DNA of 20,588 bases from an uncultured archaeon (lineage in GTDB: Archaea > Asgardarchaeota > Thorarchaeia > Thorarchaeales > Thorarchaeaceae). The stretch is taken from contig CAYWJO010000054.1 of the NCBI GenBank assembly GCA_964458565.1, positions 1 to 20,588 on the forward strand, given 5' to 3'. Positions 1-20,390 of this stretch are shown here, one piece after another. The notes below the pieces were generated by a model. That model did not search any database and was not told the DNA's origin. It saw only the letters and a program-made list of their open reading frames with translations. The position numbers and the translations under genes were made by a program. Position 1 is the stretch's first letter. Each line of letters begins with the position of its first letter.

Positions 1-180
1 ATGATGCGCAAAAGGGGCAAGTCCCTGTTACGCCATCCCGTCATCCGTCACCTTCGGCTCTGTCCGAGGACAGAAGCTGACTTCTACCTCTAAGAAGTAG
101 AATATCTTAGGAGGTGATTAATGGCTGATGACTCACTATCATCAACTTCCATCCGAGCTTTCACTACGGATACCTTGTTA
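1..180 (-). repeat. Array repeat copy 1 (long form: 16S 3' fragment + trailer; core cut by window edge)
   Basis: Positions 1-117 are near-identical to copy 4 (about 6072-6187). It extends furthest into 16S-like sequence: plus-strand GGATACCTTGTTA at 168-180. Confidence 0.95.
109..180 (-). rRNA. 16S rRNA 3'-terminal fragment (not a full gene) with 30-nt BHB intron at 118-147
   Basis: Minus strand reads TAACAAGGT-ATCCGTAGT-GAAA-GCT-CGGATGGA-[intron]-TCACCTCCT, matching the conserved h44/h45 junction, helix 45 and anti-SD. Confidence 0.85.
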
Positions 181-233
181 AAGAAAAAAATTGTAAGCAG
201 GTACAAGCTCACTTTATTTCAGAAGGTCAATAA

Positions 234-824
234 ATGAATAGAATGAATCCTAGGGTTGATGCATATTTAAGCAAAGCCACAGAGTGGCAGGAAGAATTTG
301 AGAGATTGAGAAGGATCATTCTTGACTGTGGGCTGACCGAAGAATGGAAGTGGGGTAAACCTTGCTACACGTTCAAGAAAAGCAACATAGTTTTGATACA
401 TGGATTCAAAGAATACTGTGCGCTTCTGTTTTTCAAAGGTGCCTTGTTAAATGATACCAAGGGTATTCTAGTAACACAGACGGAAAATGTGCAGGCGGCG
501 CGCCAGATTCGATTCACCAATGCTCGAGAAATAGTTGAGATGGAACCCAGCTTGAAGGCCTATATTTTTGAAGCCATTGAAGTGGAAAAAGCCGGTTTGA
601 AAGTAGATTTCAAAAAGACTACAGAATTCATAATTCCTGAAGAATTTCAAACTAAATTAGATGAAATCCCTGCCTTGAAAACTGCTTTTAATGCATTGAC
701 ACCAGGACGGCAAAGAGCATACATTCTTTATTTTTCTCAACCCAAGCAATCCAAAACCCGGGAGTCAAGGGTTGAAAAATGCATGCAGCAAATTCTCAAT
801 GGAAAGGGATTAAATGATCGGTAA
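234..824 (+). CDS. ydeI: YdeI family protein (DUF1801 + YdeI/OmpD-associated domain)
   Basis: Motifs KWGKPCY, LIHGFKEYCALLFFKGALL, QTENVQAARQIRFT and AFNALTPGRQRAY closely resemble Bacillus YdeI. Confidence 0.9.
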   Translation: MNRMNPRVDAYLSKATEWQEEFERLRRIILDCGLTEEWKWGKPCYTFKKSNIVLIHGFKEYCALLFFKGALLNDTKGILVTQTENVQAARQIRFTNAREIVEMEPSLKAYIFEAIEVEKAGLKVDFKKTTEFIIPEEFQTKLDEIPALKTAFNALTPGRQRAYILYFSQPKQSKTRESRVEKCMQQILNGKGLNDR

Positions 825-1170
825 ATTCGATGAGAAAATAAATTAATCAAACTTTAAGATATTACCTCACTTTGCATTCATTCGAACTCCTTTTTGGAAT
901 CGCAGGTAACACTCAATCAAATAATCTAGAAACGGAAAAAATGCAACTGCAAAAACTGCAACTTCCGTTCATCATTAATACACATCAGGCCCATATGAAA
1001 GGGAAATCTATCAAAAAGCTCTGCAGCCCTTTTCAAGTCCTTTCCCTCAGCATGAAGAACCAATTGATAAGGAATCACTAGGAGAGGCATTAAACATGCA
1101 CAAGTTTATTTTCAGGGTTAATAGGATTGATATCTCGGGAAAATTGGCATGAGCATACCGTCTAGGTGAG

Positions 1171-1818
1171 TTGTTGATGTTACCTGAATTATGGACTGCA
1201 ATACTCCTTTCGTTACCCTTGCTCACAATGATGATTCCTTCTATACCTTATTGGAGAGAATTTCGTAGAGATAGGAAAAAAGGAACAGAATCTAGAAAGG
1301 CTAAATACAACAAACCAGCATTCCTAATCTTTGTAAGTGGAATCTTGGTTATGTGGTTCTTTTGGATAGCCGGTATTTTCTTCTTATTTTTGAATTCGTA
1401 CTATGTAGTCTTTGGCATCATAACATTCACATTTGAATTTGACATCTTTGTCCAAATGGTTGGCTTCATATTTTTCTACATTGGTGGAGCTATCTACAAT
1501 TGGGTCCTCATTGTTGCTGGAAAATATGTACGACCAGCCCCATCAGGAGCATTAGAAAATCACCTATTAATCACAACGGGACCATATGGAGTAGTTCGAC
1601 ACCCGCTCTACTTCTCGTATGTTTGCATCCTTTTTGGGTTAGCACTTGTTTTGTCAAACTATTGGCTCATGATTCCATTGTTATGTATAATAATCGGGAT
1701 TTATCCAATGGCCAAGGCTGAAGAGAAGGTATTGACTGACCAATTTGGGAAAGACTATGTAGAATATCAAAAAGAAGTGGGTATGCTTTTTCCAAGAGGT
1801 GCTCGTAGAGAGACTTAA
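1171..1818 (+). CDS. Isoprenylcysteine carboxyl methyltransferase (ICMT/PEMT) family membrane protein
   Basis: Several TM segments, LITTGPYGVVRHPLY and C-terminal EEKVLTDQFGKDYVEYQKEV motifs. Start may be at 1177. Confidence 0.85.
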   Translation: MLMLPELWTAILLSLPLLTMMIPSIPYWREFRRDRKKGTESRKAKYNKPAFLIFVSGILVMWFFWIAGIFFLFLNSYYVVFGIITFTFEFDIFVQMVGFIFFYIGGAIYNWVLIVAGKYVRPAPSGALENHLLITTGPYGVVRHPLYFSYVCILFGLALVLSNYWLMIPLLCIIIGIYPMAKAEEKVLTDQFGKDYVEYQKEVGMLFPRGARRET

Positions 1819-1890
1819 ACTATTCTCTCAATATTTCTTGGTCGTTATTAGGATTGGGAGTAGTCAAAGATAGTAGAAATACATCTGACA

Positions 1891-1975
1891 GACTATGTAA
1901 AAGAGAGAGGTGCTCAACATCAAGTGCTAGGGGTAAGTCCCTGTGACTCCAACCCGTCATCCACCCACTTCACTC
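1891..1975 (-). repeat. Array repeat copy 2 (short form)
   Basis: Plus strand GACTATGTAAAAG..AGGTGCTCAACAT..GGGTAAGTCCCTG..AACCCGTCATCCACCCACTTCAC. Confidence 0.9.
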
Positions 1976-1994
1976 GCCATGAATGAATTTGCCT

Positions 1995-2273
1995 TCACAA
2001 CCATTTGTATCCTTTACTTCTGTGGATAATCTCAGTGACTCTGATTTCTTTTTCAATCACAAAGTAGATTGCTCTATAATCACCTATACGTAATCTATAG
2101 AGAGGCGGCTCTGCAGATACTTTCAATTTCCGAATATCTGCACCTGATCTGGATTCAAAAGGATTCGATTTTAAACTATGCAGAGCATTCTTTATTCTCA
2201 ACGTCAGTTTATCATCAAGCAATGATAGCTGTGACACTGCAGTTGCAGAGAGGAGGACTCTATATCTCGTCAA
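1995..2273 (-). CDS. relE: RelE/ParE family type II toxin
   Basis: 92 aa basic protein with YRV N-terminus, IRKLK and LYRLRIGDYRAIY. Overlaps the upstream small gene. Confidence 0.9.
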   Translation of the reverse strand: MTRYRVLLSATAVSQLSLLDDKLTLRIKNALHSLKSNPFESRSGADIRKLKVSAEPPLYRLRIGDYRAIYFVIEKEIRVTEIIHRSKGYKWL

Positions 2274-2457
2274 GGGGAGTGAACTCCTCTTCAGCTAAGA
2301 TCCGTTTCTGTCGGTCAGCAAACTGAACCTGCTCTGCCATCTCTAGGAGACGCTGGATGAGCTCATCGTAGGTCTCACCTTTGCGACCGTACTGCTTCAG
2401 TAGGTCTCGAGTCTTCTTGCTCAGAGGAATAGTTGTTGTATCACTCAATTCTATCAT
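2260..2457 (-). CDS. Cognate antitoxin (RHH-like N-terminus, acidic C-terminus)
   Basis: TTTIPLSKKTRDLLKQYGRKGETYDELIQRLL is a typical archaeal antitoxin fold, directly upstream of and overlapping relE. Confidence 0.8.
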   Translation of the reverse strand: MIELSDTTTIPLSKKTRDLLKQYGRKGETYDELIQRLLEMAEQVQFADRQKRILAEEEFTPLDEI

Positions 2458-2527: not shown

Positions 2528-2584
2528 TGAACCTAGTTCACACTCACCCATGTAGATTATGAAAAAATGAAAGGGTGCTCAACA
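2528..2584 (-). repeat. Array repeat copy 3 (minimal: flank + core only)
   Basis: TGAACC..TTCACACTCA..TAGATTATGAAAAAATGAAAGGGTGCTCAACA. Similarity stops right after the core. Confidence 0.8.
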
Positions 2585-3101
2585 GTGAGAGGAATCTGAT
2601 GAGGTATTAGAGCCACCTGCAAACCGCGTACCTCTCTCTGCTAGGAAGACATTGTCAATGTTGATTGGGTGAGTATAGAGTTGTAAGTCTTGATGATCGT
2701 TGTTTGAAATTAGACGTGCAGCAAGCCATCTTACACTATGAGATGCTAAAGAGGTTGTGAGTTGAGAGGATAAGATACATCGTCCATTGGCCGGAGCCCT
2801 AATCTCACGAGATTTCGTAAAATTAATATGACTTAACACACATATATAGGCGAACAGAACTATCAGAAAATCCTCAAGATGCACATCGTTATGTAAATGC
2901 AATCAGTGAGAATCAAACCTATTGCGTAGGTGTCTTGTTCCCCTTGGTTTCTCAGGGACTGTGTGACCGTTCACGGAATGTGTTCATCTAGCTATGGTCA
3001 CACTTGAGAGCCAAGTCTTTGTGATAGACATTGGCACTATTCAGATTGTGTATTGCGGAAGCGCCACTTATGTCAAGTGACGCACAAGAAAGTGATACGG
3101 T

Positions 3102-3956
3102 ATGCCTGCGATATCCGCAAAAGCAGAAGTAAACGAAGCTATTGTACTAGCTGCAGGCCTCGGATCTCGAATGCAACCTAGTTTCGCGGATGGGCCAAAA
3201 CCATTGATTCCAGTACTTGGCACACCCCTCCTGGAGTACGTTCTGAGAGGCCTCGATGAGATAGGCATTAAAAGAACCATTGTCGTCACAGGGAGAGAAG
3301 GAGCGTCGATTCACCGTTGGCTCTTTAAAACAGACTTCCTGATGGAGGTAGACCCCGTCCATAATGTTGACTATATACTGGGAAACGGAATATCTGCCCA
3401 AGTTGGTTTGGAATACGTAGCCAGTGACAACGTTCTACTGGTGATGGCAGATCATCTGGCACTGCCAGACCTATATGAGAGAGTACTCGATAGAAGAAAC
3501 ACTGGGATCGACCTTGGACTTGTTGTGGACTACAATCCCTCTGTTTTACTCCAATTGGATGATGCTACTAAGGTCTTGGTCAACAAGAGGCGTGAGATAC
3601 TTGAGATTGGCAAGGATATCAAGAAGTGGAATTGTGTTGATACGGGAGTCTTTTTGGTCTCAAGAGAATTCTCTTCAGCGGTCAATTCAGTGGTTCGAGG
3701 AAGTGGCGATTGTACATTGACTGAAGCGGTTCGATACATGATTGCTGCAGGCATGGACGTGCAGACATGGGACACGAATGGAGCATTCTGGCTTGACATC
3801 GACACACCGTTGGATTTAGAAAATGCTGAACGAGTCATCCTCGGCAATCCAAGGATTCGTACTATGTTAGAAGTCTTAGTTGAAGAAGAATCTGTAACCA
3901 CAAAGGAAATCCAGGACACGGATGTGTGGCCATCTGACATTGAGGGAGAGTATTGA
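3102..3956 (+). CDS. Nucleotidyltransferase, inositol-1-phosphate cytidylyltransferase (IPCT)-like
   Basis: AIVLAAGLGSRM..PKPL, MADH, VDTGVF and WLDIDTPLDL motifs, adjacent to a DIPPS-like gene. Confidence 0.85.
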   Translation: MPAISAKAEVNEAIVLAAGLGSRMQPSFADGPKPLIPVLGTPLLEYVLRGLDEIGIKRTIVVTGREGASIHRWLFKTDFLMEVDPVHNVDYILGNGISAQVGLEYVASDNVLLVMADHLALPDLYERVLDRRNTGIDLGLVVDYNPSVLLQLDDATKVLVNKRREILEIGKDIKKWNCVDTGVFLVSREFSSAVNSVVRGSGDCTLTEAVRYMIAAGMDVQTWDTNGAFWLDIDTPLDLENAERVILGNPRIRTMLEVLVEEESVTTKEIQDTDVWPSDIEGEY

Positions 3957-4708
3957 ACAGCGACATCCAAGCCAATGCTGAAAAGCATCTCGTGGAGGGA
4001 CCCATTTCTAGGCATCTAAACAGGAGAATATCTCGACCGATTGCCAGACGCATTAAGGATGTCACTTGGCTCACTCCGAACCGTGTGTCAGTCATCGCAC
4101 TGCTCTTTGCTATGCTGGCTGCTTCTTCATATTCATTTGGTAGCCTCTTGATACCAGGAGTGTGGCATGTCTTTGGTTTATTCATCATATCCCCCACTCT
4201 AGTCATTGGCGGAATGCTAGTACAACTAAGTAGCATTATCGATGGGGTGGATGGGGACCTTGCTCGGATAAGGGGAGTGTCCTCTGATGAGGGAGCCATT
4301 TTCGATGCTGTGCTGGATAGATATGCAGACATTGTGATTCTCGCAGGCATTGCATATCCCTTATTGAAAGGCGTAGCAGACATCGAGGTGCTACCTGGGT
4401 TTCCCCTGAACTTGATGGTGAGTCAGGATATGGTCTTCATCACTTTGGTGGCAGCTGTCATTGGATCCCTTATGGTGAGCTATTCTAGAGCTCGGCTTGA
4501 GGTAGCTGAGCTGTTCAGTATCCATGGACTGGTCAGGTTTGGAGCAACACGTGATGTTAGGTTGTTCCTCATCTTTGTGTGTTCACTACTGAGCTATACA
4601 TTCATTGCTCTACTGATGATAGCCATAATGGGGAATCTAACTGTCTTGCTCAGGCTTTTGTCAATTCTGCGGACAGAAAAATCGAAGGAGGACATTCAGC
4701 TTGCTTAG
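3953..4708 (+). CDS. CDP-alcohol phosphotransferase, DIPP synthase-like
   Basis: Signature DGVDGDLAR..GAIFDAVLDRYAD, TPNRVS and N-terminal GPISRHLNRRISRPI. 4-nt overlap with the upstream gene. Confidence 0.88.
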   Translation: MNSDIQANAEKHLVEGPISRHLNRRISRPIARRIKDVTWLTPNRVSVIALLFAMLAASSYSFGSLLIPGVWHVFGLFIISPTLVIGGMLVQLSSIIDGVDGDLARIRGVSSDEGAIFDAVLDRYADIVILAGIAYPLLKGVADIEVLPGFPLNLMVSQDMVFITLVAAVIGSLMVSYSRARLEVAELFSIHGLVRFGATRDVRLFLIFVCSLLSYTFIALLMIAIMGNLTVLLRLLSILRTEKSKEDIQLA

Positions 4709-5522
4709 ACTGGGCGCTACTTATTTCCCGGGTCGTTCGGGTTCAATCCAGACGTTTTTCGAACTGTGCCATGAGTTAGGTCTTCAATATGTGGAGATAC
4801 AGGTAGAGCATCCATACTCTCCAGCAGACTTGCACAAGGAAGGAGTCATGGAACTCAGAGAGATGTTCTCTGGATATGGACTCATTCCGCTAATCCACGG
4901 TCCGGTCTACGACATCAACTTAGCTAGTACAAAGGAGCGGATACGACAGGCATCAGTTGAAATCACGAAGGACTTCATCAAACTTGCACGTAGAGTAGAC
5001 TCTCAGCAGGTGGTTATTCATGCTGGAAAATGTCCGCAGGATCAAGTGCCGCTTTTACTCGCCAGAGCGCGGGAATGCGCATTCCTTAGCGTTTCCAAAC
5101 TTGCGCTATTCGCAAATGACCTCGGTGTGAAACTCGGCATCGAGAATAAACAGAGAAGCGCGGATAGAGAGATAGTCCTAACAGTTGATGACCATCTTCA
5201 AATGACTTCGGAGTTTCAGCACCTAGGGGTGTTCGCAGTCTTGGACATAGGACATGCCTTCACAACTGGAGAACGCATCACAGACTATATACATGCACTC
5301 GGAAACAGCTTGCGAGAGATTCACTTTCACGACAACAATGGTGAAACTGATGACCACTTAGCCTTAGGACATGGTAATGTTCCCTTGAAAGAAGTAGTCG
5401 AAGCGCTACGCGCCATCGATTTCAGCGGAGTGTCGATAATCGAGGTAAAGCGGAAGGAAGATCTCAGAGCTAGTGTCAAGTATCTGAGAAAGTTGGATCG
5501 CCAACCAGCTAGGACTGGATAA
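4701..5522 (+). CDS. Sugar phosphate isomerase/epimerase (xylose-isomerase-like TIM barrel, AP_endonuc_2)
   Basis: LGIEN, LDIGHA, IHFHDNNGETDDHLALGHG and IIEV metal-binding motifs. Confidence 0.88.
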   Translation: MLRLGATYFPGRSGSIQTFFELCHELGLQYVEIQVEHPYSPADLHKEGVMELREMFSGYGLIPLIHGPVYDINLASTKERIRQASVEITKDFIKLARRVDSQQVVIHAGKCPQDQVPLLLARARECAFLSVSKLALFANDLGVKLGIENKQRSADREIVLTVDDHLQMTSEFQHLGVFAVLDIGHAFTTGERITDYIHALGNSLREIHFHDNNGETDDHLALGHGNVPLKEVVEALRAIDFSGVSIIEVKRKEDLRASVKYLRKLDRQPARTG

Positions 5523-5790
5523 TATTGTAATTCACAGTATCTTCAATTCCACTTATTCAGGAGCCCGAGCTATCTTTGCCAGCCTAAGAGAGATTAAACG
5601 AATAGTGAGAGCTCTTTGCTTGAAACCAGCACACGCAGAGGCGTTCCTCGAACCAGAAGTAGAGAAGCCATGTTGTCCTCACTGGGGAGATTGTCGACAT
5701 TCGGAAAGACAACTGTTCGTGGATAATGGAAGAGAATTATTTCAGGTCCTCCTATTTTTCCGGAAGGCAAGTTGTAGCTCAAAGGTGTAA

Positions 5791-5991
5791 AAAAAACGTA
5801 CTGGAAAAAGAAGTTGGTTACACCTTGACCTCTATGCAAATAACAGAGATGAAGAGGTTGAACGACTAGTCAAGCTTGGTGCAACTCGTTATCCATGGAG
5901 ATATGAGCCAGATCATGATTACATTGTACTGGAAGATCCCGATGGAAACCTCTTCTGTGTGGTTCAAGACGACAGCGAACCTGATAGCTAG
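5791..5991 (+). pseudogene. 5'-truncated VOC/glyoxalase-like gene fragment
   Basis: Startless frame reads KRSWLHLDLYANNRDEEVERLVKLGATRYPW..YIVLEDPDGNLFCVVQ and is preceded by an in-frame TAA at 5788-5790. Confidence 0.8.
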
Positions 5992-6047
5992 ACAGATGAG
6001 AGATGGAATCAAACGATGCATCTGATATTGACTCGGAGAAGGAGTCA

Positions 6048-6244
6048 TGCAAAATGGAGAGGGCACTCAACACGATGCGCAAAGGGGCAAGTCCCTGTTA
6101 CTCCATCCCGTCATCCGTCACCTTCAGCTCTGTCCGAGGACAGAAGCTGACTTCTACCTCTAAGAAGTAGAATATCTTAGGAGGTGATTGATGGAAAGTG
6201 AGAATCACTCTCACAATCTTCCATCCGCAGCTTCCGCTACGGAT
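6048..6244 (-). repeat. Array repeat copy 4 (long form)
   Basis: Core variant GGGCACTCAACA at 6061-6072, then trailer hairpins, AGGAGGTGA at 6179-6187 and the helix-45 complement to 6244. Confidence 0.95.
6179..6244 (-). rRNA. 16S rRNA 3'-terminal fragment with 32-nt BHB intron at 6188-6219
   Basis: Minus strand ATCCGTAGC-GGAA-GCTGCGGATGGA-[32 nt]-TCACCTCCT. Confidence 0.85.
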
Positions 6245-6401: not shown

Positions 6402-6758
6402 CTACTGTGGACGAACTTTCTTCTCGTAGAAGTAGTTCATGGCTGAATATACTGTGAATAGACCTTTCTTACGTCCTATAATCAGACCAGCCTTCTCTAA
6501 TATCGCAAGATGATGCGAAATTGTGCTTTTCGACTTATTCATAATATGTGCTAGAATAGTCAGACAATACTCTCCCTCTTGCAGCAGGCGGTACATCTTA
6601 TATCTCAGGTCATGCCCCAATGCACTGTGGTATAATATCTCCTGCTGAGATTGAGTGCTCTGATCAATCTCTTTCAAGACTTTCCTCTGTTTCGCCAAAA
6701 ATGCCTTCGAGCCGATAGTTATACCCATTGCATCCAAACACAATTCCAGTTTCTGCAT
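6402..6758 (-). CDS. ArsR/SmtB family transcriptional regulator
   Basis: ALGHDLRYKMYRLL..SKSTISHHLAILEKAGLI..RKKGLFTVYS winged HTH, divergent from the FmdE/TauE genes. Confidence 0.88.
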   Translation of the reverse strand: MQKLELCLDAMGITIGSKAFLAKQRKVLKEIDQSTQSQQEILYHSALGHDLRYKMYRLLQEGEYCLTILAHIMNKSKSTISHHLAILEKAGLIIGRKKGLFTVYSAMNYFYEKKVRPQ

Positions 6759-6864
6759 TTTCTAACCACTTCATGTCCAAGAAGTCCAAAAGTATCTGGA
6801 ATGGTATTATATTTTTCGGTCTTGTTCGACATTATTGCTGTCAAAATGAAAATAGTTAAATAGA

Positions 6865-6880
6865 TTCGATATTTATCGAA
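6865..6880. promoter_or_regulatory. Palindromic operator, likely for the ArsR regulator
   Basis: TTCGATA-TT-TATCGAA perfect 7-2-7 inverted repeat between the divergent genes. Confidence 0.6.
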
Positions 6881-6896
6881 CTACTAGTGAAAAGGT

Positions 6897-7514
6897 GTGA
6901 ACACACAGCATATACCACCAGAATGGGCCTTTGAGTTCCATGGACATCTTTGCCCGTTTATGCCAATTGGATATCGGATGGGTAGACTGGCAATGAAGTA
7001 TCTCAAAGTAGACCATGAAAAGGATCATGGCTTCTTTGCGTTTCCTGAGATTGGTGAGGGACACCCACAGACCTGCATGGTCGATGGTATTCAGGTGGCA
7101 ACCGGAGCAACTTATGGCAAGGTCTTGATTGCAAAGACCTTCTATGGCAAGCTTGCTACCACATTCTTCAATCCGAAGAAAGGTGCTGTACGCTATTCTC
7201 TTAAACCTGAGTTTATTGATACCATGGGAAAGTTTGAGTTCTTTGCGTATCGGAAAAAGGGAATTGAGCCATCCCTGATTCCAAAGGAAGTGTCAGGAGA
7301 AGTTACCAAATGGACATACGAACAGACGGACGACTTCATGTTCAAGGTAGAACCAAAGCCCGATTTTAAATTCAATCCTGCAAAAGGCTCATTCAACAAG
7401 AGCAAATGTAGCATCTGCGGCGAATATGTGTTTGAGAGGTACTTACGCACCAAGGACGGAGAGTCTGTGTGCATTCCATGCTCAGGCTATATGAAATCAA
7501 GTCCTGAAGCCTAA
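6897..7514 (+). CDS. FmdE family protein with C-terminal zinc finger
   Basis: FHGHLCPFMPIGYRMG, CMVDGIQVATGATYGK and CSICGE..CIPC. Confidence 0.88.
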   Translation: MNTQHIPPEWAFEFHGHLCPFMPIGYRMGRLAMKYLKVDHEKDHGFFAFPEIGEGHPQTCMVDGIQVATGATYGKVLIAKTFYGKLATTFFNPKKGAVRYSLKPEFIDTMGKFEFFAYRKKGIEPSLIPKEVSGEVTKWTYEQTDDFMFKVEPKPDFKFNPAKGSFNKSKCSICGEYVFERYLRTKDGESVCIPCSGYMKSSPEA

Positions 7515-7529
7515 GATGCAAAGCAGTGG

Positions 7530-8306
7530 GTGGGCATCAGTATGGATATTGTACTTCTATACGCCATCATCCTTACCTTTCTAATAGCTTTTGTGTTCTC
7601 GATGTTTGGTCAGGGGGGAGGGTCAGTATACTCCCCAATACTGATTCTGCTTGGTTACGCAGTATTGCTTTCTACTTCCACATCACTAGTGTTGAACCTA
7701 ATAACATCGCTTTCTGCGGGCTATATCTTTTACCGCAACAAGATGATAGATTTGAGAACATCACTCCTATTCGTGCCTGGTATCGGTCTTGGAGCCTTCA
7801 TGGGCGGAGCACTAGCCGTATTTGCTGATACTGTCCTCATGTTATGGCTGTTCGTGTTTTTTCTCATCATTATGGGAGCGAGGATGATCTATACTTACTG
7901 GGAAAGGGGAATGACTGAAGGAAGCTCTCCAAAAGGGCTGTCCACAGCCGTGTATGTACTGATTGTCTTTTTCAGTTTCGCTGTGGGATTCATCTCTGGT
8001 CTGCTCGGGGTTGGTGGTGGAGTGTTAATCGTTCCATTCATGGTCTATGTGTGTAAGTATCCTGCGAAGTTTGCAGCAGGTTCATCGCACTTGATTATAT
8101 CATTCTCAGCGTTTTTCGGCATATTAGGTCATGCGGCAACTCACGAATTAGACATCCTATTGATCATAACGACTGCCATTGCCGTTCTCATCGCTGGAAA
8201 CCTTGGGGCCAGAACTAGTATGAGGCTAAAACCTCAGAAAATTAAGGCAGGGCTAGGCATCATAATGTGGGTGCTTGCTGTCATGCTTATTGTGAGCCTC
8301 ATTTGA
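7530..8306 (+). CDS. TauE/SafE (TSUP) sulfite-exporter family permease
   Basis: About 8 TM segments with duplicated glycine motifs FSMFGQGGGSVYSP and SGLLGVGGGVLIVP. Confidence 0.88.
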   Translation: MGISMDIVLLYAIILTFLIAFVFSMFGQGGGSVYSPILILLGYAVLLSTSTSLVLNLITSLSAGYIFYRNKMIDLRTSLLFVPGIGLGAFMGGALAVFADTVLMLWLFVFFLIIMGARMIYTYWERGMTEGSSPKGLSTAVYVLIVFFSFAVGFISGLLGVGGGVLIVPFMVYVCKYPAKFAAGSSHLIISFSAFFGILGHAATHELDILLIITTAIAVLIAGNLGARTSMRLKPQKIKAGLGIIMWVLAVMLIVSLI

Positions 8307-8324
8307 AAAACCTGCGTATGCATG

Positions 8325-12028: not shown

Positions 12029-12103
12029 AACACAACGATTCTAGTCTTAGTGATAAATCCCCAACAGATAGAAATTGTCGCATAGATTTCACATACTCTT
12101 TCG

Positions 12104-12725: not shown

Positions 12726-12726
12726 T

Positions 12727-13038
12727 TCAAATGCCCTCTGCGAATATCAAGTCCTCTGCAAGTGATTGTTCCTCATACATTGCTATTTTGCGTTCTGCCA
12801 GTTCTTTCATCATTGCTCTTAGTGGAATCTCAGCAATAGCTGCAGCTTTCCAAATACTGAGACGTCTAGCTGCGACCTCCTCAGACAGATAATCGAGAAG
12901 ATCAGCTGAAAGAGACCTATCTATGAGCTGACGTACGTATGATGATTTGTCAACAATCTTCCTTTTCTCCATCAGAAAAGTTAGTCGTTTCTCCAATTCT
13001 GCATCCATTCTCACTGAGAGTACATCACCCATCTTCAA
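12727..13038 (-). CDS. UPF0175 family antitoxin with N-terminal RHH
   Basis: VLSVRMD..DKSSYVRQLI and LSIWKAAAIAEIPLRAMMKEL. Usual partner of DUF3368. Confidence 0.82.
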   Translation of the reverse strand: MKMGDVLSVRMDAELEKRLTFLMEKRKIVDKSSYVRQLIDRSLSADLLDYLSEEVAARRLSIWKAAAIAEIPLRAMMKELAERKIAMYEEQSLAEDLIFAEGI

Positions 13039-13096
13039 TCATGTATACTATGTATGACAGAGTATATGAATGTATTTGTTGAATCTGGAGGGTGAC

Positions 13097-13285
13097 TCAC
13101 TCTTTGGTTCTTTCAAGAGGGAGAAACGCCTCTTCTTCCAGGATTTGTTTCTGGTGTCTTACGAACCCGATTTGATCATATCTCCTGATTAAGCGTAGTA
13201 GTGTATCATTGAAATCCTCACCCGGTAACCTCGCTTCTTCCAAGAGATTGTAAGCTTCTTCAGTTATCCGGATTTTCTTAGTCAA
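13097..13285 (-). CDS. Orphan antitoxin (DUF217/VapB-like)
   Basis: TKKIRITEEAYNLLEEARLPGEDFNDTLLRLI. C-terminus resembles the antitoxin at 2260-2457. Confidence 0.75.
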   Translation of the reverse strand: MTKKIRITEEAYNLLEEARLPGEDFNDTLLRLIRRYDQIGFVRHQKQILEEEAFLPLERTKE

Positions 13286-13356
13286 AATTTGTTCCTCAGA
13301 TTTTCATATGGCAGTTCAGATATAAAACCACAACCATTGGTTCTGTAAGATTGTTT

Positions 13357-13429
13357 GACTATGAATAAAATAGGGTCCTCAACATGGTGTGCTAAGGGAA
13401 AGTCCCTTTACAATCCAACCCGTCATCCG
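13357..13429 (-). repeat. Array repeat copy 9 (short form)
   Basis: Nearly identical to copy 8 over GACTATGAATAAAATAGGGTCCTCAACATG..CCCGTCATCC. Confidence 0.92.
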
Positions 13430-13472: not shown

Positions 13473-14531
13473 TTACAATGCTTTCAATGCTTGTTCTAGA
13501 GTTGATTTGAATCTACTTATTCTATCTTTCTTTATACCTTCACTAATTTCCTTGTCATTTGCAAGTTGAATCTCTATCTCTCTCTTACGTAAAGGTTTGA
13601 TGAGTTCTGGTTCTTCTACGTTGATTCCCACGGGACGGTTCTTAGGAAGGGGTTCAGGTAATGAAAGTACACGAAAGTCCTTTTTAAGATTCAAAGTAAA
13701 AATCCCCTTTTTCTCTTTCACTTTATCAATCTGATCAAGCCAAATATAGTCAACACTACCAAAGTATGCATGATTGTCTGAATCTGGATAATAGAATTTA
13801 GCATACTTAGGCTTGTTAGCAATGGCTACACTTGACATAACTCCAGGATAGATCATTATACTAGCTTGGCTATATGGTGATGGATTTTTATCGTCTGGTA
13901 AATCGTTTCCAACAAAAATCAGTCTCTTGTTTGTAAGAAATAATCCGGGCATCTTGTACTTATCAATTACTTGGCTCATGCACGTAATTCCATAGTCTAT
14001 ATGCATTAATTCTTCTTCATCCTGAAACACTTGTTGAGCAATACTTAGTAAAAGATCTAAAGCTATCAAACGTGAATAAGATAGATATTCATCCAGTTTA
14101 AGAATATCAGACTGTAGATTATATGTATCATCTTTAGCATAAAGATTAGCAATAATCTCAAAAGTTGGAAAAACTCCCTCAGTATCAACAGATGGATATC
14201 CCTTCAGTAGCAAGTCAATAGCAAGATTGTCATGGGTTTTCAGAATACTCTCGAAGTACTCTATAATCTCATCTCTTTTCTGGATGATTTTTTCAATTAA
14301 TTCCCAATAATCGTGGGTAATATTATCCAAACTAGGAATTATTTGACGACCTTCCCACTCAAAAAGACGTTGAGCATTAGTGGATACAATTAAAGGTGGA
14401 TCTCCATCATTGGCGTCATCTGGAGATTGACCATCAAACAACAATGGATAGCTATACAATTCCTTCGAAAATTCATCTAATCTGGTAAGAATATCATCAA
14501 TCATACTCAATAAATCCCCATGATTAAACAT
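13473..14531 (-). CDS. Hypothetical protein, possible PH/GRAM-like domain
   Basis: Long AT-rich ORF. GLFLTNKRLIFV and IWLDQIDKVK resemble PH-fold motifs. Confidence 0.7.
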   Translation of the reverse strand: MFNHGDLLSMIDDILTRLDEFSKELYSYPLLFDGQSPDDANDGDPPLIVSTNAQRLFEWEGRQIIPSLDNITHDYWELIEKIIQKRDEIIEYFESILKTHDNLAIDLLLKGYPSVDTEGVFPTFEIIANLYAKDDTYNLQSDILKLDEYLSYSRLIALDLLLSIAQQVFQDEEELMHIDYGITCMSQVIDKYKMPGLFLTNKRLIFVGNDLPDDKNPSPYSQASIMIYPGVMSSVAIANKPKYAKFYYPDSDNHAYFGSVDYIWLDQIDKVKEKKGIFTLNLKKDFRVLSLPEPLPKNRPVGINVEEPELIKPLRKREIEIQLANDKEISEGIKKDRISRFKSTLEQALKAL

Positions 14532-14605
14532 TAAAGAAATCTCATATTTATCAATTCTGTAAGATTTTTTTATCTAGCATCTTCTCTGAATATTAAACTG
14601 CTGTA

Positions 14606-14683
14606 TTGTAAAAGAGAGGGTGCTCAACATGGTGTACAAGGGCAAGTCCCTGTTACTCCAACCCGTCATCCACCCACTTCACT
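14606..14683 (-). repeat. Array repeat copy 10 (short form)
   Basis: TTGTAAAAGAGAGGGTGCTCAACATGGTG..GGGCAAGTCCCTGTTACTCCAACCCGTCATCCACCCACTTCAC. Confidence 0.92.
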
Positions 14684-14711
14684 TCTCACGCTGAGCGTTA
14701 TAATTAGTTGA

Positions 14712-16940
14712 TTATTCCTGATTTAATTCGTCCACTGCCTTTCTTGCTTCATCTTCAAGTTCTCGTTCTTTCTTCACCTTTTCTCGTTTTTCAAGGTAGG
14801 GACGAGAGAGGTAGATACCGACTCCTGCCAGAGCTGCACCTAGAACGAAGATTCCGAGGATTATAGGCAGGTTGTAAAGAAGGAATTCATTGAGAGGGAT
14901 TAGAGGATTGAGTGGATCAAATCCATTAATCACCTCCCAACCATCGGGAATTGAGTCCATATCGCTATCAGGGTCATTAGGATCAGTATGGTGCAGGAAT
15001 TCCTGAGCATTGGATAGAGCGTCATTGTCCAAGTCTTCTGAAGCATCTTGAGGATCTAGAGGATTCAGACCGTGTGCCAACTCCCATGAGTCAGACATGC
15101 TGTCTGAATCGGTGTCACTATTGACAGGCGAGGTACCATAGATGAACAGCTCACTGTAGTCATCAAGTGAGTCATGATCAGTGTCATTGCTAAATCGATT
15201 GGTATCGAATACCGTTTCGTTGAAGTCAGGAATCAAGTCGCCATCACTGTCACTCATATCACCTAGTTTGAAGATGAAGCTATCAGAAGTGCCATTTAGA
15301 GTATCATCATAGCCATTGTAGTGTGGAAAGTCATCAGACCCAGTCAAACCAGTGACATATGCAAAACCTAAGTCATCAATATAGATGGATGAGGTTGAAT
15401 CGTAATGTGATCCTCCAACGAAGGTCGAATAGAGGAGAAGCCCATTGACTACATCAATCTTTGTCACAAACACATCTCGATTCCCATTATGTGATGAATC
15501 ATAGGCATTGAGAGTCGGAAAATCCAGTGAGTATGTCATGCCAGCTACATATGCACCATCATGATCATCTGCAATCAATGCAAAAGCGATATCATCACTA
15601 TTGCCTCCGAGATATGTAGAGAAGGAGATGGAACTCGCCTCCGAATCTATCGCCAACAAGAATGAGTCCACACCTCCATGAATGTTGCTAGCAAACGCAT
15701 GAGAGGTTGTGAAGTCATCTGATGTTGTTTCACCACAGACAATGATGGCACCACTAGAGCTCATGTCAATTGAATGAGCAGAGTCACTTGCGTTCCCTCC
15801 GAAAAAGGTTGAGAAGAGAAGTGAATCACCAGTTGGAGCCAGTTTTGCGATGAAGCAATCTTGGCTACCATTGAGTGTGTCATCAAGGGGATTCATCAGA
15901 GGGAAGTCCGGAGATTCAGTGTATCCAGAGATGATGACATTTCCCATTCTATCAAGGGTGATTGATGTGCTTACATCGTCAAGGATTCCTCCAAGATAAG
16001 TCGAAAATACGAGACCATTTCCAGTGGCGTTCAGCTGGCAGATGAAACAATCCCAATGCTCTACATACACATCACCATTATAGGTTTCATCATATCCATG
16101 TGTCGTGGGAAATGTAGGCGAGTTCGTATATCCTGTGACATAGGCATTTCCTACCTCATCGACTGTAATTGAGGTTGCCAAATCACGGCTTCCTGAGTAA
16201 GGAAAAATAAAACCACCACCTATTAGTGAGGAGTATATCAAACCATTACCAGTGGCATTTAGCTTTATAATAAAGGCATCATGACCATCAGCATCAGGAC
16301 TTACATATCCATTTACACATGGAAAATCGTTTGAATCAGTCCATCCAGAGACGTATACATTTCCCATTGAATCTACATAGATAGATGTACCAACATCATT
16401 AGATCTCCCACCGATGATTGTTGAATATATCAATCCGTTACCAGTGGAATTGAACTTGGCTACAAAGCAGTTAATTGAACTATTATAATCAGTTGTGAGA
16501 TTGACAGTCATTGGAAAGTCTGATGCACCAGTATAACCAGTCACGTATATATTACAATCCGGGTCTACAGCAATGTCTGTCATTTCCACATGATCAACCA
16601 ACTCACTACCACCAAAATAGGTTGAAAAAATGAGAGGTGAGGGAATGGCATTGGGATTGATATCACTTTTATCAAATTCTAATTCAATCTCATGCAAGCA
16701 AGAGATAGTCGGATCTCTCTTCGTGGCGACACTGTTTATGATTGGTATAAATGGATTTACACTGATGGTTTCAAAAAGGGAGTGGTTAACTTGTCTGATG
16801 TTGCATGAGATCAAGAGAGCAACTGTAAGGAGAAGGATAATGTGAATCTTCTTCAATCTCGTGATAGAGGGTATTCTCATCAGAGAACTCAGAACCCGAT
16901 ATGTCTTCACATTACCCGATTTTTTCACCGTTCCAAACAA
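14712..16940 (-). CDS. SBBP beta-propeller repeat surface protein with Ca-binding TSP3-like repeats and C-terminal TM anchor
   Basis: Repeated STY.GG..D....I.VD..GN.YV.G.T.S.DFP units and DSDGDLIPD/DTDSDSMSDSWE repeats. Start may be at 16880. Confidence 0.88.
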   Translation of the reverse strand: MFGTVKKSGNVKTYRVLSSLMRIPSITRLKKIHIILLLTVALLISCNIRQVNHSLFETISVNPFIPIINSVATKRDPTISCLHEIELEFDKSDINPNAIPSPLIFSTYFGGSELVDHVEMTDIAVDPDCNIYVTGYTGASDFPMTVNLTTDYNSSINCFVAKFNSTGNGLIYSTIIGGRSNDVGTSIYVDSMGNVYVSGWTDSNDFPCVNGYVSPDADGHDAFIIKLNATGNGLIYSSLIGGGFIFPYSGSRDLATSITVDEVGNAYVTGYTNSPTFPTTHGYDETYNGDVYVEHWDCFICQLNATGNGLVFSTYLGGILDDVSTSITLDRMGNVIISGYTESPDFPLMNPLDDTLNGSQDCFIAKLAPTGDSLLFSTFFGGNASDSAHSIDMSSSGAIIVCGETTSDDFTTSHAFASNIHGGVDSFLLAIDSEASSISFSTYLGGNSDDIAFALIADDHDGAYVAGMTYSLDFPTLNAYDSSHNGNRDVFVTKIDVVNGLLLYSTFVGGSHYDSTSSIYIDDLGFAYVTGLTGSDDFPHYNGYDDTLNGTSDSFIFKLGDMSDSDGDLIPDFNETVFDTNRFSNDTDHDSLDDYSELFIYGTSPVNSDTDSDSMSDSWELAHGLNPLDPQDASEDLDNDALSNAQEFLHHTDPNDPDSDMDSIPDGWEVINGFDPLNPLIPLNEFLLYNLPIILGIFVLGAALAGVGIYLSRPYLEKREKVKKERELEDEARKAVDELNQE

Positions 16941-17377: not shown

Positions 17378-17603
17378 GAACTATGGTCCACACTAACCTG
17401 GATAATATGAAAAAGATAGGGTGCTCAATATGATGTGCTAAGGGAAAAGCCCTTTTACAATCCAACCCGTCATCCGTCACCTTCGGCTCTGTCCGAGGAC
17501 AGAAGCTGACTTCTACTTCTAAGAAGTAGAAAATCTTAGGAGGTGATTGATGGAATGTGAGAATCACTCTCACCATCTCCCATCCGCAGCTTCCGATATG
17601 GAT
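17378..17603 (-). repeat. Array repeat copy 11 (long form, mosaic)
   Basis: Core GGGTGCTCAATA at 17419, first hairpin of the copy 8/9 type, remainder like copies 4/6. Confidence 0.95.
17538..17603 (-). rRNA. Degenerate 16S rRNA 3'-terminal fragment with 32-nt BHB intron at 17547-17578
   Basis: Minus strand ATCCATATC-GGAA-GCTGCGGATGGG-[32 nt]-TCACCTCCT, with substitutions that break helix 45 pairs. Confidence 0.8.
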
Positions 17604-17696: not shown

Positions 17697-18113
17697 CTAT
17701 GCGATGTGGCATAAACCCGCAAAGTCAGAATCAAATGTGGCTATGTAGCCAACATCATTGGTATCGATGAATGATAGAATACAGCAATCGGTGAAACTAA
17801 GGGGTTTTTCAGGCCATTTGGCATAGCGTTCCCATTTCTCCCACGCAAGTCTCAAAACATCAGGTGTTACATATTCAAACTTGATGAACTCAGGTGTACT
17901 TCGAACGAGGGTGTAAGCCTTTTTCACTACACCCTTTTGATGGGTATGCATCCAAAGAGTTGTGAGTACTTCATCTAACACATAATCAATCGTGAGCCGC
18001 ATACCGTAGTCTGGATTCTTAAGCTTGGTAAGAAGCTCTCTTGCGTTTCGATGGTTCCGGTCTCGCGTGTTCAGCAATGCAATGAAGACATTACTATCTA
18101 TGAGGACTGTCAC
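17697..18113 (-). CDS. vapC: PIN-domain (VapC-like) toxin
   Basis: VLIDSNVFIAL, YVLDEVLT, LSFTDCCI and IATFDSDF. Confidence 0.9.
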   Translation of the reverse strand: MTVLIDSNVFIALLNTRDRNHRNARELLTKLKNPDYGMRLTIDYVLDEVLTTLWMHTHQKGVVKKAYTLVRSTPEFIKFEYVTPDVLRLAWEKWERYAKWPEKPLSFTDCCILSFIDTNDVGYIATFDSDFAGLCHIA

Positions 18114-18394
18114 GTGGAGTCACCGCCATAGACAACATCATCTACACTCGATGAGAGATCTTCACTGCCAGGCCCAAAATCTTCAGCTAGGGACAGGACC
18201 TTTTCAATAATATCATCATCCAAAGGATAGTCCATCAATCGCACCTCATTGACAATCAGTTCATAATTCTCAAGACCAATCCTGAACACAATCTCCAGTA
18301 TGTCCTTCTTTGTCAGACGCTTTCGTGTATCAAGATATAGACGAGCCTGCAGTTCTTCCAAGTCATCCTTGAGGTCAAACTTCACTGTGGACAC
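18110..18394 (-). CDS. Putative cognate antitoxin
   Basis: Small acidic protein ending EDLSSSVDDVVYG, overlapping the toxin start by 4 nt. Confidence 0.78.
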   Translation of the reverse strand: MSTVKFDLKDDLEELQARLYLDTRKRLTKKDILEIVFRIGLENYELIVNEVRLMDYPLDDDIIEKVLSLAEDFGPGSEDLSSSVDDVVYGGDST

Positions 18395-18696
18395 CTGTTA
18401 CACCCAGTAACTAAGTAACCATTTTAGCATATAAACTTGTGGAGTTCTACGTTTCATGCCTATCAACTCACCCGCTCGGATACTAAATACTCCAAAGCGG
18501 TCAGATGTTTAGGATTGACATTCAAAAGCTTGGAAGCATCACCAGGAGTAATTGTTCCTTCATGCAATGCGTCGAATATGATAGAAGGTATTTAGGTAGA
18601 GTAAGGGGATTGTAAGGTATCTAGGAAAAAGATCAGTAGAACCTGGTTCATCTCTCTTTCTGGATGGGGAGCAATTGGTACTTCAACTCATGAGAA

Positions 18697-19005
18697 ATGC
18701 TACGGCTCAAACGGACAGATATTGAGAATGCGGGTATTACTATTGACAAAATAATCACACTAGGAACTCCACATTTTGGTACCATCGCCGCAGAGTATCC
18801 TTTCGATGAACTTACAACTTTTGTTATGGCTCTGAAATTTGGTCAATTTTGGGAAAGCCCAGTCTTCCTCTCACTTGCTCCAACTAGTGGATTGATATTA
18901 ACACAATTATCAGAGATTGACAATTACTATCAGGGTATAGAGTGGTATACAATCAGCATGAGTAATGCAGTGAGTTCAGAATCTTTGATTCTCGAAGGAT
19001 TTTGA
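18697..19005 (+). pseudogene. Alpha/beta-hydrolase (lipase/PGAP1-like) internal fragment
   Basis: IDKIITLGTPHFGT motif is present, but the upstream GxSxG nucleophile motif is not in the ORF. Confidence 0.55.
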
Positions 19006-19099
19006 CGAGTTTATAGATGATATGAAACGAATAATGAAAGATATCTTAAAAATAAGACGATAGTAGATTCAATGATGGTTTCGACTCATTCAATAGAAT

Positions 19100-19177
19100 A
19101 TTGCAAAATAGAAAGGGAGGCTCAACAAAGAACATGTACTGGGAAAGTTCCCTGGTTACCTGACCCCGTCATAAGCC
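19100..19177 (-). repeat. Array repeat copy 12 (short, divergent lineage)
   Basis: TTGCAAAATAGAAAGGGAGGCTCAACAA..GTACTGGGAAAGTTCCC..GACCCCGTC, shared with copy 13. Confidence 0.85.
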
Positions 19178-19324
19178 TTTTTCCTTTTTACCTCCAAGAC
19201 TCGTTCCCTGATATAGCTAATTGTTTATGATGGAATGAAAGCACTCTGCTCTATTTTTCTTTTTCAGTAATTCACCTTCCAGAATGATGAATGATCTGTA
19301 ATCGCTTGATGTTTCTTGATCTGT

Positions 19325-20092
19325 TCAATGGTGTACCTGCAGACGCATCACAGTATCACGTTCTCGATCAAGAACTGGTTTGAATCCACGTTTTGCATAC
19401 ATGCTTTGAGGCCCCCGAAAATGTGCAGCATCATTTTTTTCTGGTTCATTGCGAGGGTATCCTTCAATCCATAATGCTCCACGGGTAGCTGCCTCTTCAA
19501 TCACATGGTCAAGCAGAGCTGATGCAACTCCATGTCTTCGATAGGGCGGAGCAATCACAAAACACGAAATACCAATTACTGATGCAGGTTCAGGACCATC
19601 AGGATCAACTTGTTGAAACATCTTATAGTCACTACGAAGAGATGCGTTTACCCATCCCACCGGCTTATTATCAACATATGCTAAGTATCCGTAAGTTTCT
19701 CCCTTTGACAGGCGATCAATCATGATTGATCGTTTTTCTCGCCATGGACGTCCATGGTTCTCATCTGTTGGAGGTATATGTGGTTCAAGACAGTAGCAAG
19801 AAGCCCAAGCAGGATTATCTGTGAAACCATCATGATCGAAAAAATGTAGCCAATCATCTATGGAGTCCTTTGTGACTGGATGTATAGTGATTTCGCCAAT
19901 TTCTTCTTTTCTTACTGTATCACCTGTGAGTCGCTTTACTGCTTCTATATAATTGCGGACATAGTTTCTTACTTCTCTTTCGGGATACTCCCAAGAATGG
20001 TTCTTGTGACCATGTGCTACAAAAAGATCCACAAGTGCTTCTAGGGTTTCGGCCTCAATCACTTCATCACAATCAAAGCATCTGACTTTCAT
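19325..20092 (-). CDS. GNAT family acetyltransferase with small N-terminal Cys/His (DUF1059-like) domain
   Basis: ISCFVIAPPYRRHGVASALL acetyl-CoA motif, IEGYP and MYAKRGF. N-terminal CFDC..H...H. Confidence 0.88.
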   Translation of the reverse strand: MKVRCFDCDEVIEAETLEALVDLFVAHGHKNHSWEYPEREVRNYVRNYIEAVKRLTGDTVRKEEIGEITIHPVTKDSIDDWLHFFDHDGFTDNPAWASCYCLEPHIPPTDENHGRPWREKRSIMIDRLSKGETYGYLAYVDNKPVGWVNASLRSDYKMFQQVDPDGPEPASVIGISCFVIAPPYRRHGVASALLDHVIEEAATRGALWIEGYPRNEPEKNDAAHFRGPQSMYAKRGFKPVLDRERDTVMRLQVHH

Positions 20093-20183
20093 TGATCATT
20101 CCAACCTGATTAAATCACATGTTTATCTTGAAAGCGAACAAGAAAGAAGATAAATCTGACTTCTGCTTATCCAAGATTGACGT

Positions 20184-20390
20184 TTGTAAAATGAGAGGGT
20201 GGCTCAACAATATACAGGTACTGGGAAAGTTCCCCGAATACCCGACCCCGTCGAAGGCCCGTACTTCTCTCGCTGTTCCGAAGAACCGCAAGACAAGCTG
20301 CTCTACCTCTATGGTAGAAACATAGGAGGTGATTGATGGAAAGTGAGAGTGACTCTCACCATCTTCCATCCGCAGCTTCCGCTACGGATA
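20184..20390 (-). repeat. Array repeat copy 13 (long form, divergent trailer)
   Basis: Core GGGTGGCTCAACA at 20197, diverged but structurally equivalent hairpins, AGGAGGTGA at 20324-20332. Confidence 0.92.
20324..20390 (-). rRNA. 16S rRNA 3'-terminal fragment with 32-nt BHB intron at 20333-20364
   Basis: Minus strand TATCCGTAGC-GGAA-GCTGCGGATGGA-[32 nt]-TCACCTCCT. Confidence 0.85.

Follow-up and report, generated by a model that had tools for sequence, protein, structure and literature searches.

Conserved RNA genes can gather foreign DNA at their 3′ ends. At tRNA and tmRNA 3′ ends, integrative elements and cargo-only satellites accrete in tandem, as in the tycheposon islands of Prochlorococcus and in the cis-mobilizable elements (CIMEs) beside ICESt1/ICESt3. 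A replacement 3′ end can also come with a mobile endonuclease open reading frame (ORF), as at Allomyces mitochondrial atp6, or with a free-standing homing endonuclease through co-conversion; the resident end is then displaced. According to Ghaly et al. (2022, PMC9668308), Asgard archaea are enriched in integrons and in clusters of attC sites lacking integrases (CALINs). Here we analyze a tandem array of small gene modules separated by copies of a repeat derived from the 3′ end and trailer of 16S rRNA. The array fills a stretch of 20,588 nucleotides (nt), referred to as the window, which is the entire contig C54 (GenBank CAYWJO010000054.1) of a 3.7-Mb, 93-contig metagenome-assembled genome (MAG) of an uncultured Thorarchaeaceae archaeon. 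This MAG is denoted G000 and the genomes compared with it carry other G-numbers.

The array shares the architecture of tRNA-end accretion and of integrons and fails their defining enzyme and site features. As in tycheposons and CIMEs, a conserved RNA gene 3′ end serves as landing site, partial direct repeats bound the units, the live gene is intact and many units are devoid of a recombinase. Unlike in those systems, the target is the 16S tail and processing stem rather than a tRNA, no integrase-bearing “master” element was found in the arrays examined, and the units are integron-sized (0.6-3.5 kb) with variable repeat boundaries. Sedentary chromosomal integrons and CALINs, too, are long arrays with a single orientation, made up of small accessory modules that mostly carry a promoter and include many toxin-antitoxin (TA) pairs; likewise, cassettes are shared and reordered between relatives, with some evidence of insertion beside the anchor. 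In contrast to integrons, however, the array has neither IntI nor attI; its repeat lacks R″/L″/L′/R′ organization, forms no imperfect palindrome and is descended from an rRNA gene with which it is continuous. Both strands carry genes, and the crossover is apparently not fixed. The product left by a mobile endonuclease ORF, namely gene body, foreign 3′ end, inserted ORF and displaced resident 3′ end, has the same shape, and a LAGLIDADG module of another Asgard genome (G030, see below) looks just like it. Here, on the other hand, most modules are without a nuclease, arrays reach at least 14 units and most displaced copies start in the trailer instead of at a single cleavage site. No published description of such arrays was found in the literature searched.

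Relation of the repeat to pre-16S rRNA

A first-pass annotation, made from the letters of the window alone, had read the spacer as a piece of the 16S rRNA 3′ end and trailer. Read on the minus strand, a long copy consists, in this order, of helix 45 (ATCCGTAGCGGAAGCTGCGGATGG, with a GGAA loop), a 31-nt hairpin, the anti-Shine-Dalgarno (anti-SD) sequence (ATCACCTCCT) and about 150 nt of trailer, which ends in (C/A)TGTTGAGCACCC followed by a T-run. The distal trailer and the T-rich run are present in all of the 14 copies. Four full long copies (c0, c6061, c17419 and c20197; Table 1) reach helix 45. A fifth, c10216, is cut just upstream of the anti-SD, and the remaining copies start inside the trailer and hold its distal part only. 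Comparison with relatives bears out the rRNA assignment: the copy at 6031-6260 matches their 16S 3′ end at 25/25 nt of helix 45 in many genomes, and it is 82-87% identical over about 95 nt to sequence at, or just beyond, the annotated 16S end in G001, G002 and G016. In these genomes the 16S gene stands alone, with a trailer after it.

The archaeal pre-rRNA processing stem is a helix between leader and trailer that is cut by the splicing endonuclease. In the relatives, the distal trailer (CACTGTTGAGCA) is complementary to the leader (ATGCTCAACAGTG), and cofolding produces a long leader-trailer helix in G045 and G003. Together, the matches to 16S ends and the complementarity to the leader indicate that the core of all 14 copies is the 3′ strand of the pre-16S processing stem followed by a T-rich, terminator-like run. 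Such a strand normally occurs once per rRNA gene; here, in contrast, at least 14 orphan copies with no leader partner bound protein-coding modules. Archaeal terminators end in a T-run, and a role of the T-run of the repeat as terminator is plausible. Searching Rfam at gathering and E<=1 thresholds gave nothing in the window, as expected from the shortness of the 16S fragments.

The terminal CTGTTGAGCACCC motif with the T-run is the best-kept part of the 14 copies and of the copies in every genus examined. The right boundary of the repeat varies, falling either after CATAGTC or after an extra GAGTGTGAAC-like block common to G009. An additional conserved block, with a consensus close to TGAGTGTGAACTAGGTTC (rRNA-sense strand, partly palindromic), lies 25-30 nt beyond the T-run in about half of the G000 copies (window 2528-2567, 8877-8916, 12104-12143 and 17360-17400) and in nearly all G009 copies (L039). 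This block may be an ancestral downstream flank or a part of the repeat unit.

A single locus and the arrays of related genomes

Repeat finding was combined with a profile made from the 12 cores listed in the first-pass annotation and run against the G000 contigs. The profile matched 14 times on a single strand: all 13 co-oriented copies that the annotation had placed in the window were recovered (E 3.5e-23 to 9e-09), and a fourteenth lies at the 3′ end of contig C26. The copy truncated at window base 1 gave a profile E of 1.5e-08. The end of C26 and the first 55 bases of the window are identical, an overlap indicating that the two contigs join and that the cut copy, c0, is completed on C26. 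This copy is the most distal one, and the array terminus on C26 adjoins an acs-like (acetyl-CoA-synthetase-like) gene; no synteny of this flank was found in relatives. Outside C54 and the C26 end, the best remaining matches in G000 have E values of at least 0.025. The repeat is thus genuine, well above anything chance would give, and clustered at a single locus, as had been predicted, unlike a miniature inverted-repeat transposable element (MITE) or a repetitive extragenic palindrome (REP). A weak solitary match to the profile (E 0.025) is found at C7:48703-48779, in 16S-leader orientation and with no 16S behind it. All 14 copies are co-oriented, with a spacing of 0.66-3.5 kb, and the copies are 60-94% alike.

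The first-pass annotation had predicted an intact minus-strand 16S gene beyond position 20588; the 16S gene is absent from the G000 assembly, and no G000 contig overlapping the right end of the window was found. Contig C69 carries homologues of the genes upstream from 16S in G002 and G003, but no leader or 16S follows them. The copy nearest the right end, c20197, diverges from 16S upstream of helix 45 and is therefore not the live 16S end. The best explanation of these data is that the window represents the distal part (at least 20.6 kb, 14 copies and at least 13 modules) of an accretion array behind a single, unlinked Thorarchaeota 16S gene.

Matches to the 16S part or core of the repeat were obtained in 27 of 61 family genomes, and with a second query in 50 of 76, all 16 genera being represented; the window's copy has no match in genomes outside the family. 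Several relatives show what the G000 assembly lacks, a complete 16S gene heading the array. In G002, the order is 16S, trailer, an ArsR-MerA-MerB module, trailer, a small module, trailer, a module with a 1717-amino acid (aa) protein, a TnpB-like protein and an SDH-type protease, and trailer again. G003 has 16S and trailer, then the same large 1717-aa/TnpB-like module as G002, then three more copies with TA cassettes. In G045, 16S and trailer are followed by 2.3 kb of cargo and by a second copy that starts from the helix 45 loop and is identical to the first over about 110 nt, and in G069 the 16S gene precedes seven further trailer ends and two long displaced copies. The proposal that cargo accumulates in tandem behind 16S, in units bounded by pieces of the rRNA 3′ end, is borne out by these four genomes. 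The comparison of G002 with G003 fits the entry of new modules beside the 16S gene.

The first cassette behind 16S in G002 (L036:4858-7654) is a mercury-resistance module with an ArsR-like ORF related to the ArsR of the window, MerA with an HMA domain, and MerB. A conserved module lies just behind 16S in three genera (L036:9388-17724 in G002, L044:3749-12202 in G003 and L042:7417-14475 in G001). It encodes a protein of about 1700 aa without a Pfam family and a 588-aa TnpB/Cas12f-like protein, along with an SDH/ClpP-type protease in G002 and G003. G000 has five TnpB-like copies; C79:80-4151 is listed with the large module. A guide directed by the TnpB-like genes to the trailer was considered and rejected, as no 12-mer in their 3′ flanks suggestively matched the conserved trailer part.

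The stretch of 16S between helix 45 and the anti-SD is normally invariant. In the window, it contains the 31-nt hairpin (6145-6185, 17505-17545, 20300-20335 and 75-115). The hairpin is present in the live 16S of G001, G002, G016 and G045 and missing from that of G003, G014, G009 and G069; in G069 it is confined to displaced array copies (relatives compared: L013, L009, L012, L040 and L053). This distribution suggests that the live 16S end can be supplanted by array copies. On these sequence comparisons, hairpin-bearing copies appear able to become the live end of 16S, a point of some relevance to rRNA evolution. L013 (G002), L009 (G001) and L012 (G016) have another insertion, of about 28 nt, at the h44/h45 junction between GTCGTAAC and ACAAGGT and about 40 nt upstream of helix 45; it forms a hairpin in which the changes between genomes are compensatory. 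It is absent in G045, G003, G014 and G069.

Exchange of modules and the mechanism behind it

Shuffling of cassettes among relatives, anticipated by the first-pass annotation, is evident across genera, where the same cassettes recur in a different arrangement: PIN/DUF3368-UPF0175 in G002 and G009, the PIN pair at 17697-18394 in G002 and G003, ParE in G002, MazE-PIN in G008 and G038, and YdeI in G037. The TA cassettes shared with G002, G003, G009, G008 and G038 are 50-85% identical in aa sequence and are found in different orders and between different trailer boundaries. Neither a MITE- or REP-like scatter of the repeat nor a fixed order of cassettes was seen. Aligned at the DNA level, shared cassettes are homologous from promoter through stop codon, and behind the cargo each genome has a trailer copy of its own type, with its own starting point. 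Copies c19115 and c20197, on either side of the GNAT gene, are unlike the other copies of the window; along their whole length they match genus-g6 copies at 85-86%. Close homologues of the GNAT protein (78-83%) are confined to g6 arrays, so that this module and the two copies around it appear to have come in together. In a comparison of four genomes, homology of the GNAT module starts at TGTTGAGCC while the upstream trailer bodies differ. Among public assemblies, the exact GNAT protein was found on a single 1.3-kb contig only.

The public runs that contain window sequence are salt-marsh metagenomes, none of them listed as RNA. Contigs assembled independently in Logan, from the same and from other salt-marsh samples (four in all), cover the junctions of the window; these junction data are assembled contigs, not raw reads. 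A chimera is not borne out. A relative about 93% identical is represented by a 1403-nt contig of run X6, another salt-marsh sample, in which 13550-14638 and 1928-2240 are linked via one repeat. This is a different cassette adjacency, with cassette 9 beside cassette 2. Run X6 is without cover of 2669-6003, 6671-8671 and 14675-17342, which was not used as evidence. Several small joints of Logan contigs fall within the repeat and have a shorter arm of 21-41 nt; these were taken as other repeat copies rather than rearrangements, and a joint from 19170 to 6178 was discarded as an artefact of the sequence cut at 20000.

These observations make it scarcely credible that the array is an assembly artefact, or a set of static local duplications without mobility. 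The window is a short-read MAG contig whose left end breaks at the repeat, and the 16S gene is unassembled, all of which would fit an artefact. However, the copies, being 60-94% alike, are too diverged for collapsed or chimeric repeats, independent contigs from four samples cover the junctions, the architecture is found in 16/16 family genera and cassettes are shared in different orders.

As to mechanism, we favor RadA-type homologous recombination or double-strand-break repair between trailer copies, a reading to which we give an even chance of being correct. We infer that a dedicated tyrosine or serine recombinase is not needed. In this view, the trailer copies would supply homology arms that travel with the cargo. 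Wherever the live tail or one of the copies is broken or invaded by a strand, the RadA machinery would carry out repair from DNA of copy-cargo-copy form. Alternatively, a circle looped out between two copies could re-enter via a single crossover. Either route would add, delete or reorder modules and leave a displaced tail fragment with a variable upstream boundary, and the live 16S gene would stay intact, each event restoring a complete tail. The many TA modules would counter loss by repeat-mediated deletion, as proposed for chromosomal integrons. The wider concept of a recombinase-free “integron”, in which the 3′ strand of the pre-16S stem is a portable landing sequence and the modules it flanks are exchanged across genera by host homologous recombination, with the most highly conserved DNA of the cell as anchor, or in which a wholly new recombinase family does the same job, is tentative and, in our judgement, falls just short of an even chance.

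An integron-like system with an undescribed site-specific recombinase, which would read CTGTTGAGCACCC plus the T-run, cross over at or near the step between G and TTGAGC and move circular cassettes, appears rather unlikely. It would account for the preservation of the terminal motif in all 14 copies and in every genus examined, for the fit of this motif to the integron core GTTRRRY, for GNAT homology from TGTTGAGCC in four genomes with differing upstream bodies, for the integron-like cargo profile and for the insertion beside 16S that the G002/G003 comparison fits. Yet one hybrid copy points elsewhere. Copy T534 of G086 follows T6192 of G069 on its left and T8211 of G069 on its right, and the switch lies inside the body, upstream of GTTGAGC, not at the G/TT step. 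Similarly, c12147 and c13373 are identical over body and end, which is unexpected from crossovers at this step between unrelated cassettes, and both boundaries of the repeat vary. The mosaic copies, the variable boundaries, the 72-nt repeats of 99% identity and the G086 hybrid, with no recombinase linked to the arrays compared, lead us to favor homologous recombination over such an enzyme. Moreover, CTGTTGAGCACCC is the longest block identical among copy types, so that homologous recombination between diverged copies would also tend to resolve there; the start of GNAT homology is in this way explained without a site-specific enzyme. The limits of BLAST alignments between genus-g6 arrays (-84 to +34 nt around the terminal motif) cannot separate a fixed from a homology-driven crossover because all copies are alike in this interval.

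Searches for recombinases relied on Pfam and NCBIfam profiles and on incomplete MAGs. The IntI profile TIGR02249 has no match in G000, G002, G009, G037 or G042. Tyrosine (PF00589) and serine (PF00239) recombinases are found in 19 and 18 of 51 genomes, respectively, and neither occurs on the array contigs of the eight genomes G002, G003, G008, G009, G034, G042, G043 and G045. Six genomes with extra trailer copies or an array (G001, G016, G037, G038, G044 and G047) have neither family, and the single PF00589 match of G000 is on another contig, C53. Against the site-specific enzyme, then, there is no integron integrase and no tyrosine or serine recombinase that is array-linked or universal in array genomes. 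The recombinase that the first-pass annotation had thought possible nearby was not found on the window ORFs scanned or on the compared array contigs. Many family genomes (G001, G009, G016, G037, G038, G042 and others), some more than 95% complete, give no match to Pfam Phage_integrase, so that no XerA-type recombinase is detected in them.

The sequence around the motif was inspected for attC features. In 12/12 copies there is no RYYYAAC partner within 150 nt upstream of GTTGAGC, and in 11/12 no complement of GTTGAGC with up to one mismatch; c14618 has GCTCAGC at -68. Single-stranded DNA folds are weak (-3 to -11 kcal/mol) and leave the motif unpaired except for weak local pairing in c2573 and c8920. 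The earlier statement that the spacer is not an attC site thus holds, and the absence of an inverted R″ partner and of an attC-like fold also speaks against a site-specific enzyme. Classical integrases are unlikely as the engine. To the idea of a true integron remnant (CALIN), with attC sites merely resembling a 16S trailer, we give almost no credence. The integron-like cargo, the GTTRRRY-like motif and the reported enrichment of integrons and CALINs in Asgard archaea (PMC9668308) would suit it; however, both in relatives and in the long copies the repeat runs on into real 16S sequence, R″/R′ inverted repeats and IntI are lacking, and genes are on both strands.

Another conceivable start is the replacement of the 16S 3′ end triggered by a homing endonuclease: a cut near helix 45, a donor tail plus genes copied in, and the resident tail displaced downstream, possibly with homologous recombination as later shuffler. 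Paquin and colleagues are said to have described in 1994 that the mobile ORF of Allomyces mitochondrial atp6 works by 3′-end replacement. The closed genome G030, which belongs to another Asgard family, has a diverged second copy starting in helix 45; the sole module that separates it from the live trailer encodes a LAGLIDADG protein. LAGLIDADG genes also lie inside the 16S genes of some Thorarchaeota (G009, G043), and the long copies of the window, of G045 and of G069 all start within about 10 nt of the 5′ strand of helix 45. We nevertheless consider this origin improbable for the window, which has no nuclease gene; most copies are short and start far from helix 45, the LAGLIDADG case is single and in another family, and the HNH gene that abuts a displaced helix 45 in G069 and G070 is cargo. 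Nuclease-triggered replacement of 3′ ends may seed such structures; it cannot alone account for the window.

The G030 site (L051:11343-12120; C1, about 451.3-452.1 kb) has its LAGLIDADG gene seemingly split into two ORFs, and its second 16S 3′ end is partial and diverged, with a trailer hairpin showing compensatory changes. Single copies are found in G058, a relative of G030, and in G019. The HNH gene, 182 aa in length, is present in arrays of G069 (L053:9952-10500), G070 (L054:3585-4193) and G066, and as a pseudogene in G002 (L037:11770-12318); the copy in G036 likewise has a trailer end before it. In G069 and G070, the HNH stop codon is the TAG of the displaced helix 45, which gives the gene the look of a homing element and, formally, places a nuclease ORF between a replacement 3′ end and a displaced one. 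Close homologues (60-95% identical) number more than 1200 and come from Thorarchaeota, Thermoplasmata, Methanoperedens, Rokubacteria and others; conserved in this way across domains, the family has the appearance of a highly mobile selfish gene. In four contexts examined outside Thorarchaeota it has no 16S fragment beside it, and the family was not found in G000. As the gene is widespread, not linked to 16S elsewhere and absent from G000, it was ruled out as the engine of the arrays and is regarded as cargo.

Returning to homologous recombination, several points weigh against it. In the shortest copies, clear similarity extends over only about 35 nt, a short stretch for a RadA-type exchange, and no recombination intermediate, circle or excision junction was seen in the contigs. 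The terminal GTTGAGCACCC with the T-run is better preserved than the rest of the displaced copies and, with GTTGAGC fitting GTTRRRY, would suit a site-specific enzyme; the start of GNAT homology right at TGTTGAGCC is predicted by both models. The hybrid copy is one example, from genomes about 6% apart. A new recombinase family would be missed by profile searches on MAGs of this kind. Finally, the first creation of a new cassette is left unexplained by homologous recombination.

If the recombinase-free reading is correct, these archaeal relatives of eukaryotes would possess a platform for gene capture that is built on an rRNA processing stem, rather than on attC or tRNA sites, and is apparently integrase-free. 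It would offer a concrete route for the flow of accessory genes, among them the mercury-resistance module, TA pairs and acetyltransferases, across genera of Asgard archaea. The reported “integron enrichment” of Asgard MAGs may be due in part to trailer arrays, which would also explain the poor assembly of 16S genes and their flanks in these MAGs.

Cargo and coordinates of the window

The cargo was annotated by a Pfam scan of the window ORFs longer than 60 aa, which found no recombinase, transposase or nuclease domain. TA pairs, GNAT, YdeI and methyltransferase genes, all listed in the first-pass annotation, were confirmed by Pfam; the VOC domain listed with them was not found. Genes do lie on both strands, as had been noted, about 60% in the rRNA sense and about 40% opposite to it. 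Table 1 gives the coordinates.

Table 1. Trailer copies (named c) and gene cassettes of the window, in order of position
Feature	Coordinates	Strand	Description
c0	1..174, completed by C26:47771-47853	-	long form; 16S from h44/h45 junction (AACAAGGTATCCG...), 31-nt hairpin, anti-SD, full trailer, T-run
Cassette 1	234..1818	+	YdeI/DUF1801 234-824; 69-aa ORF 872-1081; PEMT/ICMT-type methyltransferase 1171-1818
c1908	1884..1975	-	short form, “GTGAAGTGGG” subtype
Cassette 2	1995..2457	-	ParE toxin 1995-2273; DUF7557 antitoxin-like ORF 2260-2457
c2573	2546..2640	-	body of divergent type; CTGTTGAGCACCC motif and T-run intact
Cassette 3	2579..5839		107-aa ORF (-); operon 3102-5522 (+); 81-aa ORF (-)
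c6061	6042..6244	-	long form; starts exactly at helix 45 (ATCCGTAGCGG)
Cassette 4	6402..8939		ArsR-type helix-turn-helix protein (-); FmdE/zinc-finger protein (+); TauE/SafE exporter (+); 204-aa ORF (-)
c8920	8890..8974	-	terminal motif and T-run alone clearly kept
Cassette 5	8966..10141	+	BNR/Asp-box beta-propeller protein
c10216	10193..10346	-	intermediate form; starts just upstream of anti-SD
Cassette 6	10489..11161	+	MazE-type antitoxin and PIN toxin; homologues in G008, G038, G002
c11209	11183..11277	-	short form
Cassette 7	11337..12123	-	PIN toxin and 125-aa partner; homologues in G002, G034, G008
c12147	12118..12202	-	72-nt stretch 99% identical to c13373
Cassette 8	12225..13285	-	PIN/DUF3368, UPF0175, VapB-like ORF; between near-identical 72-nt direct repeats
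c13373	13345..13428	-	partner of c12147 in 72-nt near-identity
Cassette 9	13473..14531	-	352-aa ORF, no Pfam family
c14618	14595..14685	-	mosaic: c1908-type flank, c10216-type body
Cassette 10	14712..16940	-	742-aa SBBP beta-propeller/TSP3 repeat protein; 35% aa homologue in G009 array
Doubtful 192-aa ORF	16998-17576		overlaps copy c17419
c17419	17392..17603	-	long form/long flank, c12147-type body
Cassette 11	17697..19005		PIN toxin and 94-aa antitoxin-like ORF (-); 102-aa ORF (+)
c19115	19089..19187	-	genus-g6 type (GAGCCTCCC)
Cassette 12	19325..20092	-	GNAT acetyltransferase; close homologues only in genus-g6 arrays
c20197	20170..20389	-	long form, genus-g6 type
Start of further unit	20390..20588		contig ends here

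The operon of cassette 3 encodes an NTP-transferase, a CDP-alcohol phosphatidyltransferase and a xylose-isomerase-like TIM barrel protein. The YdeI homologue in the G037 array is 74% identical in aa sequence to that of cassette 1, and the ParE of cassette 2 is 68-70% identical to genes of the G002 array. The DNA of cassette 8 is homologous to cassettes of G002 and G009, where the trailer boundaries differ. The TA pair of cassette 11 has counterparts in the arrays of G002, at 71-85% aa identity, and of G003.

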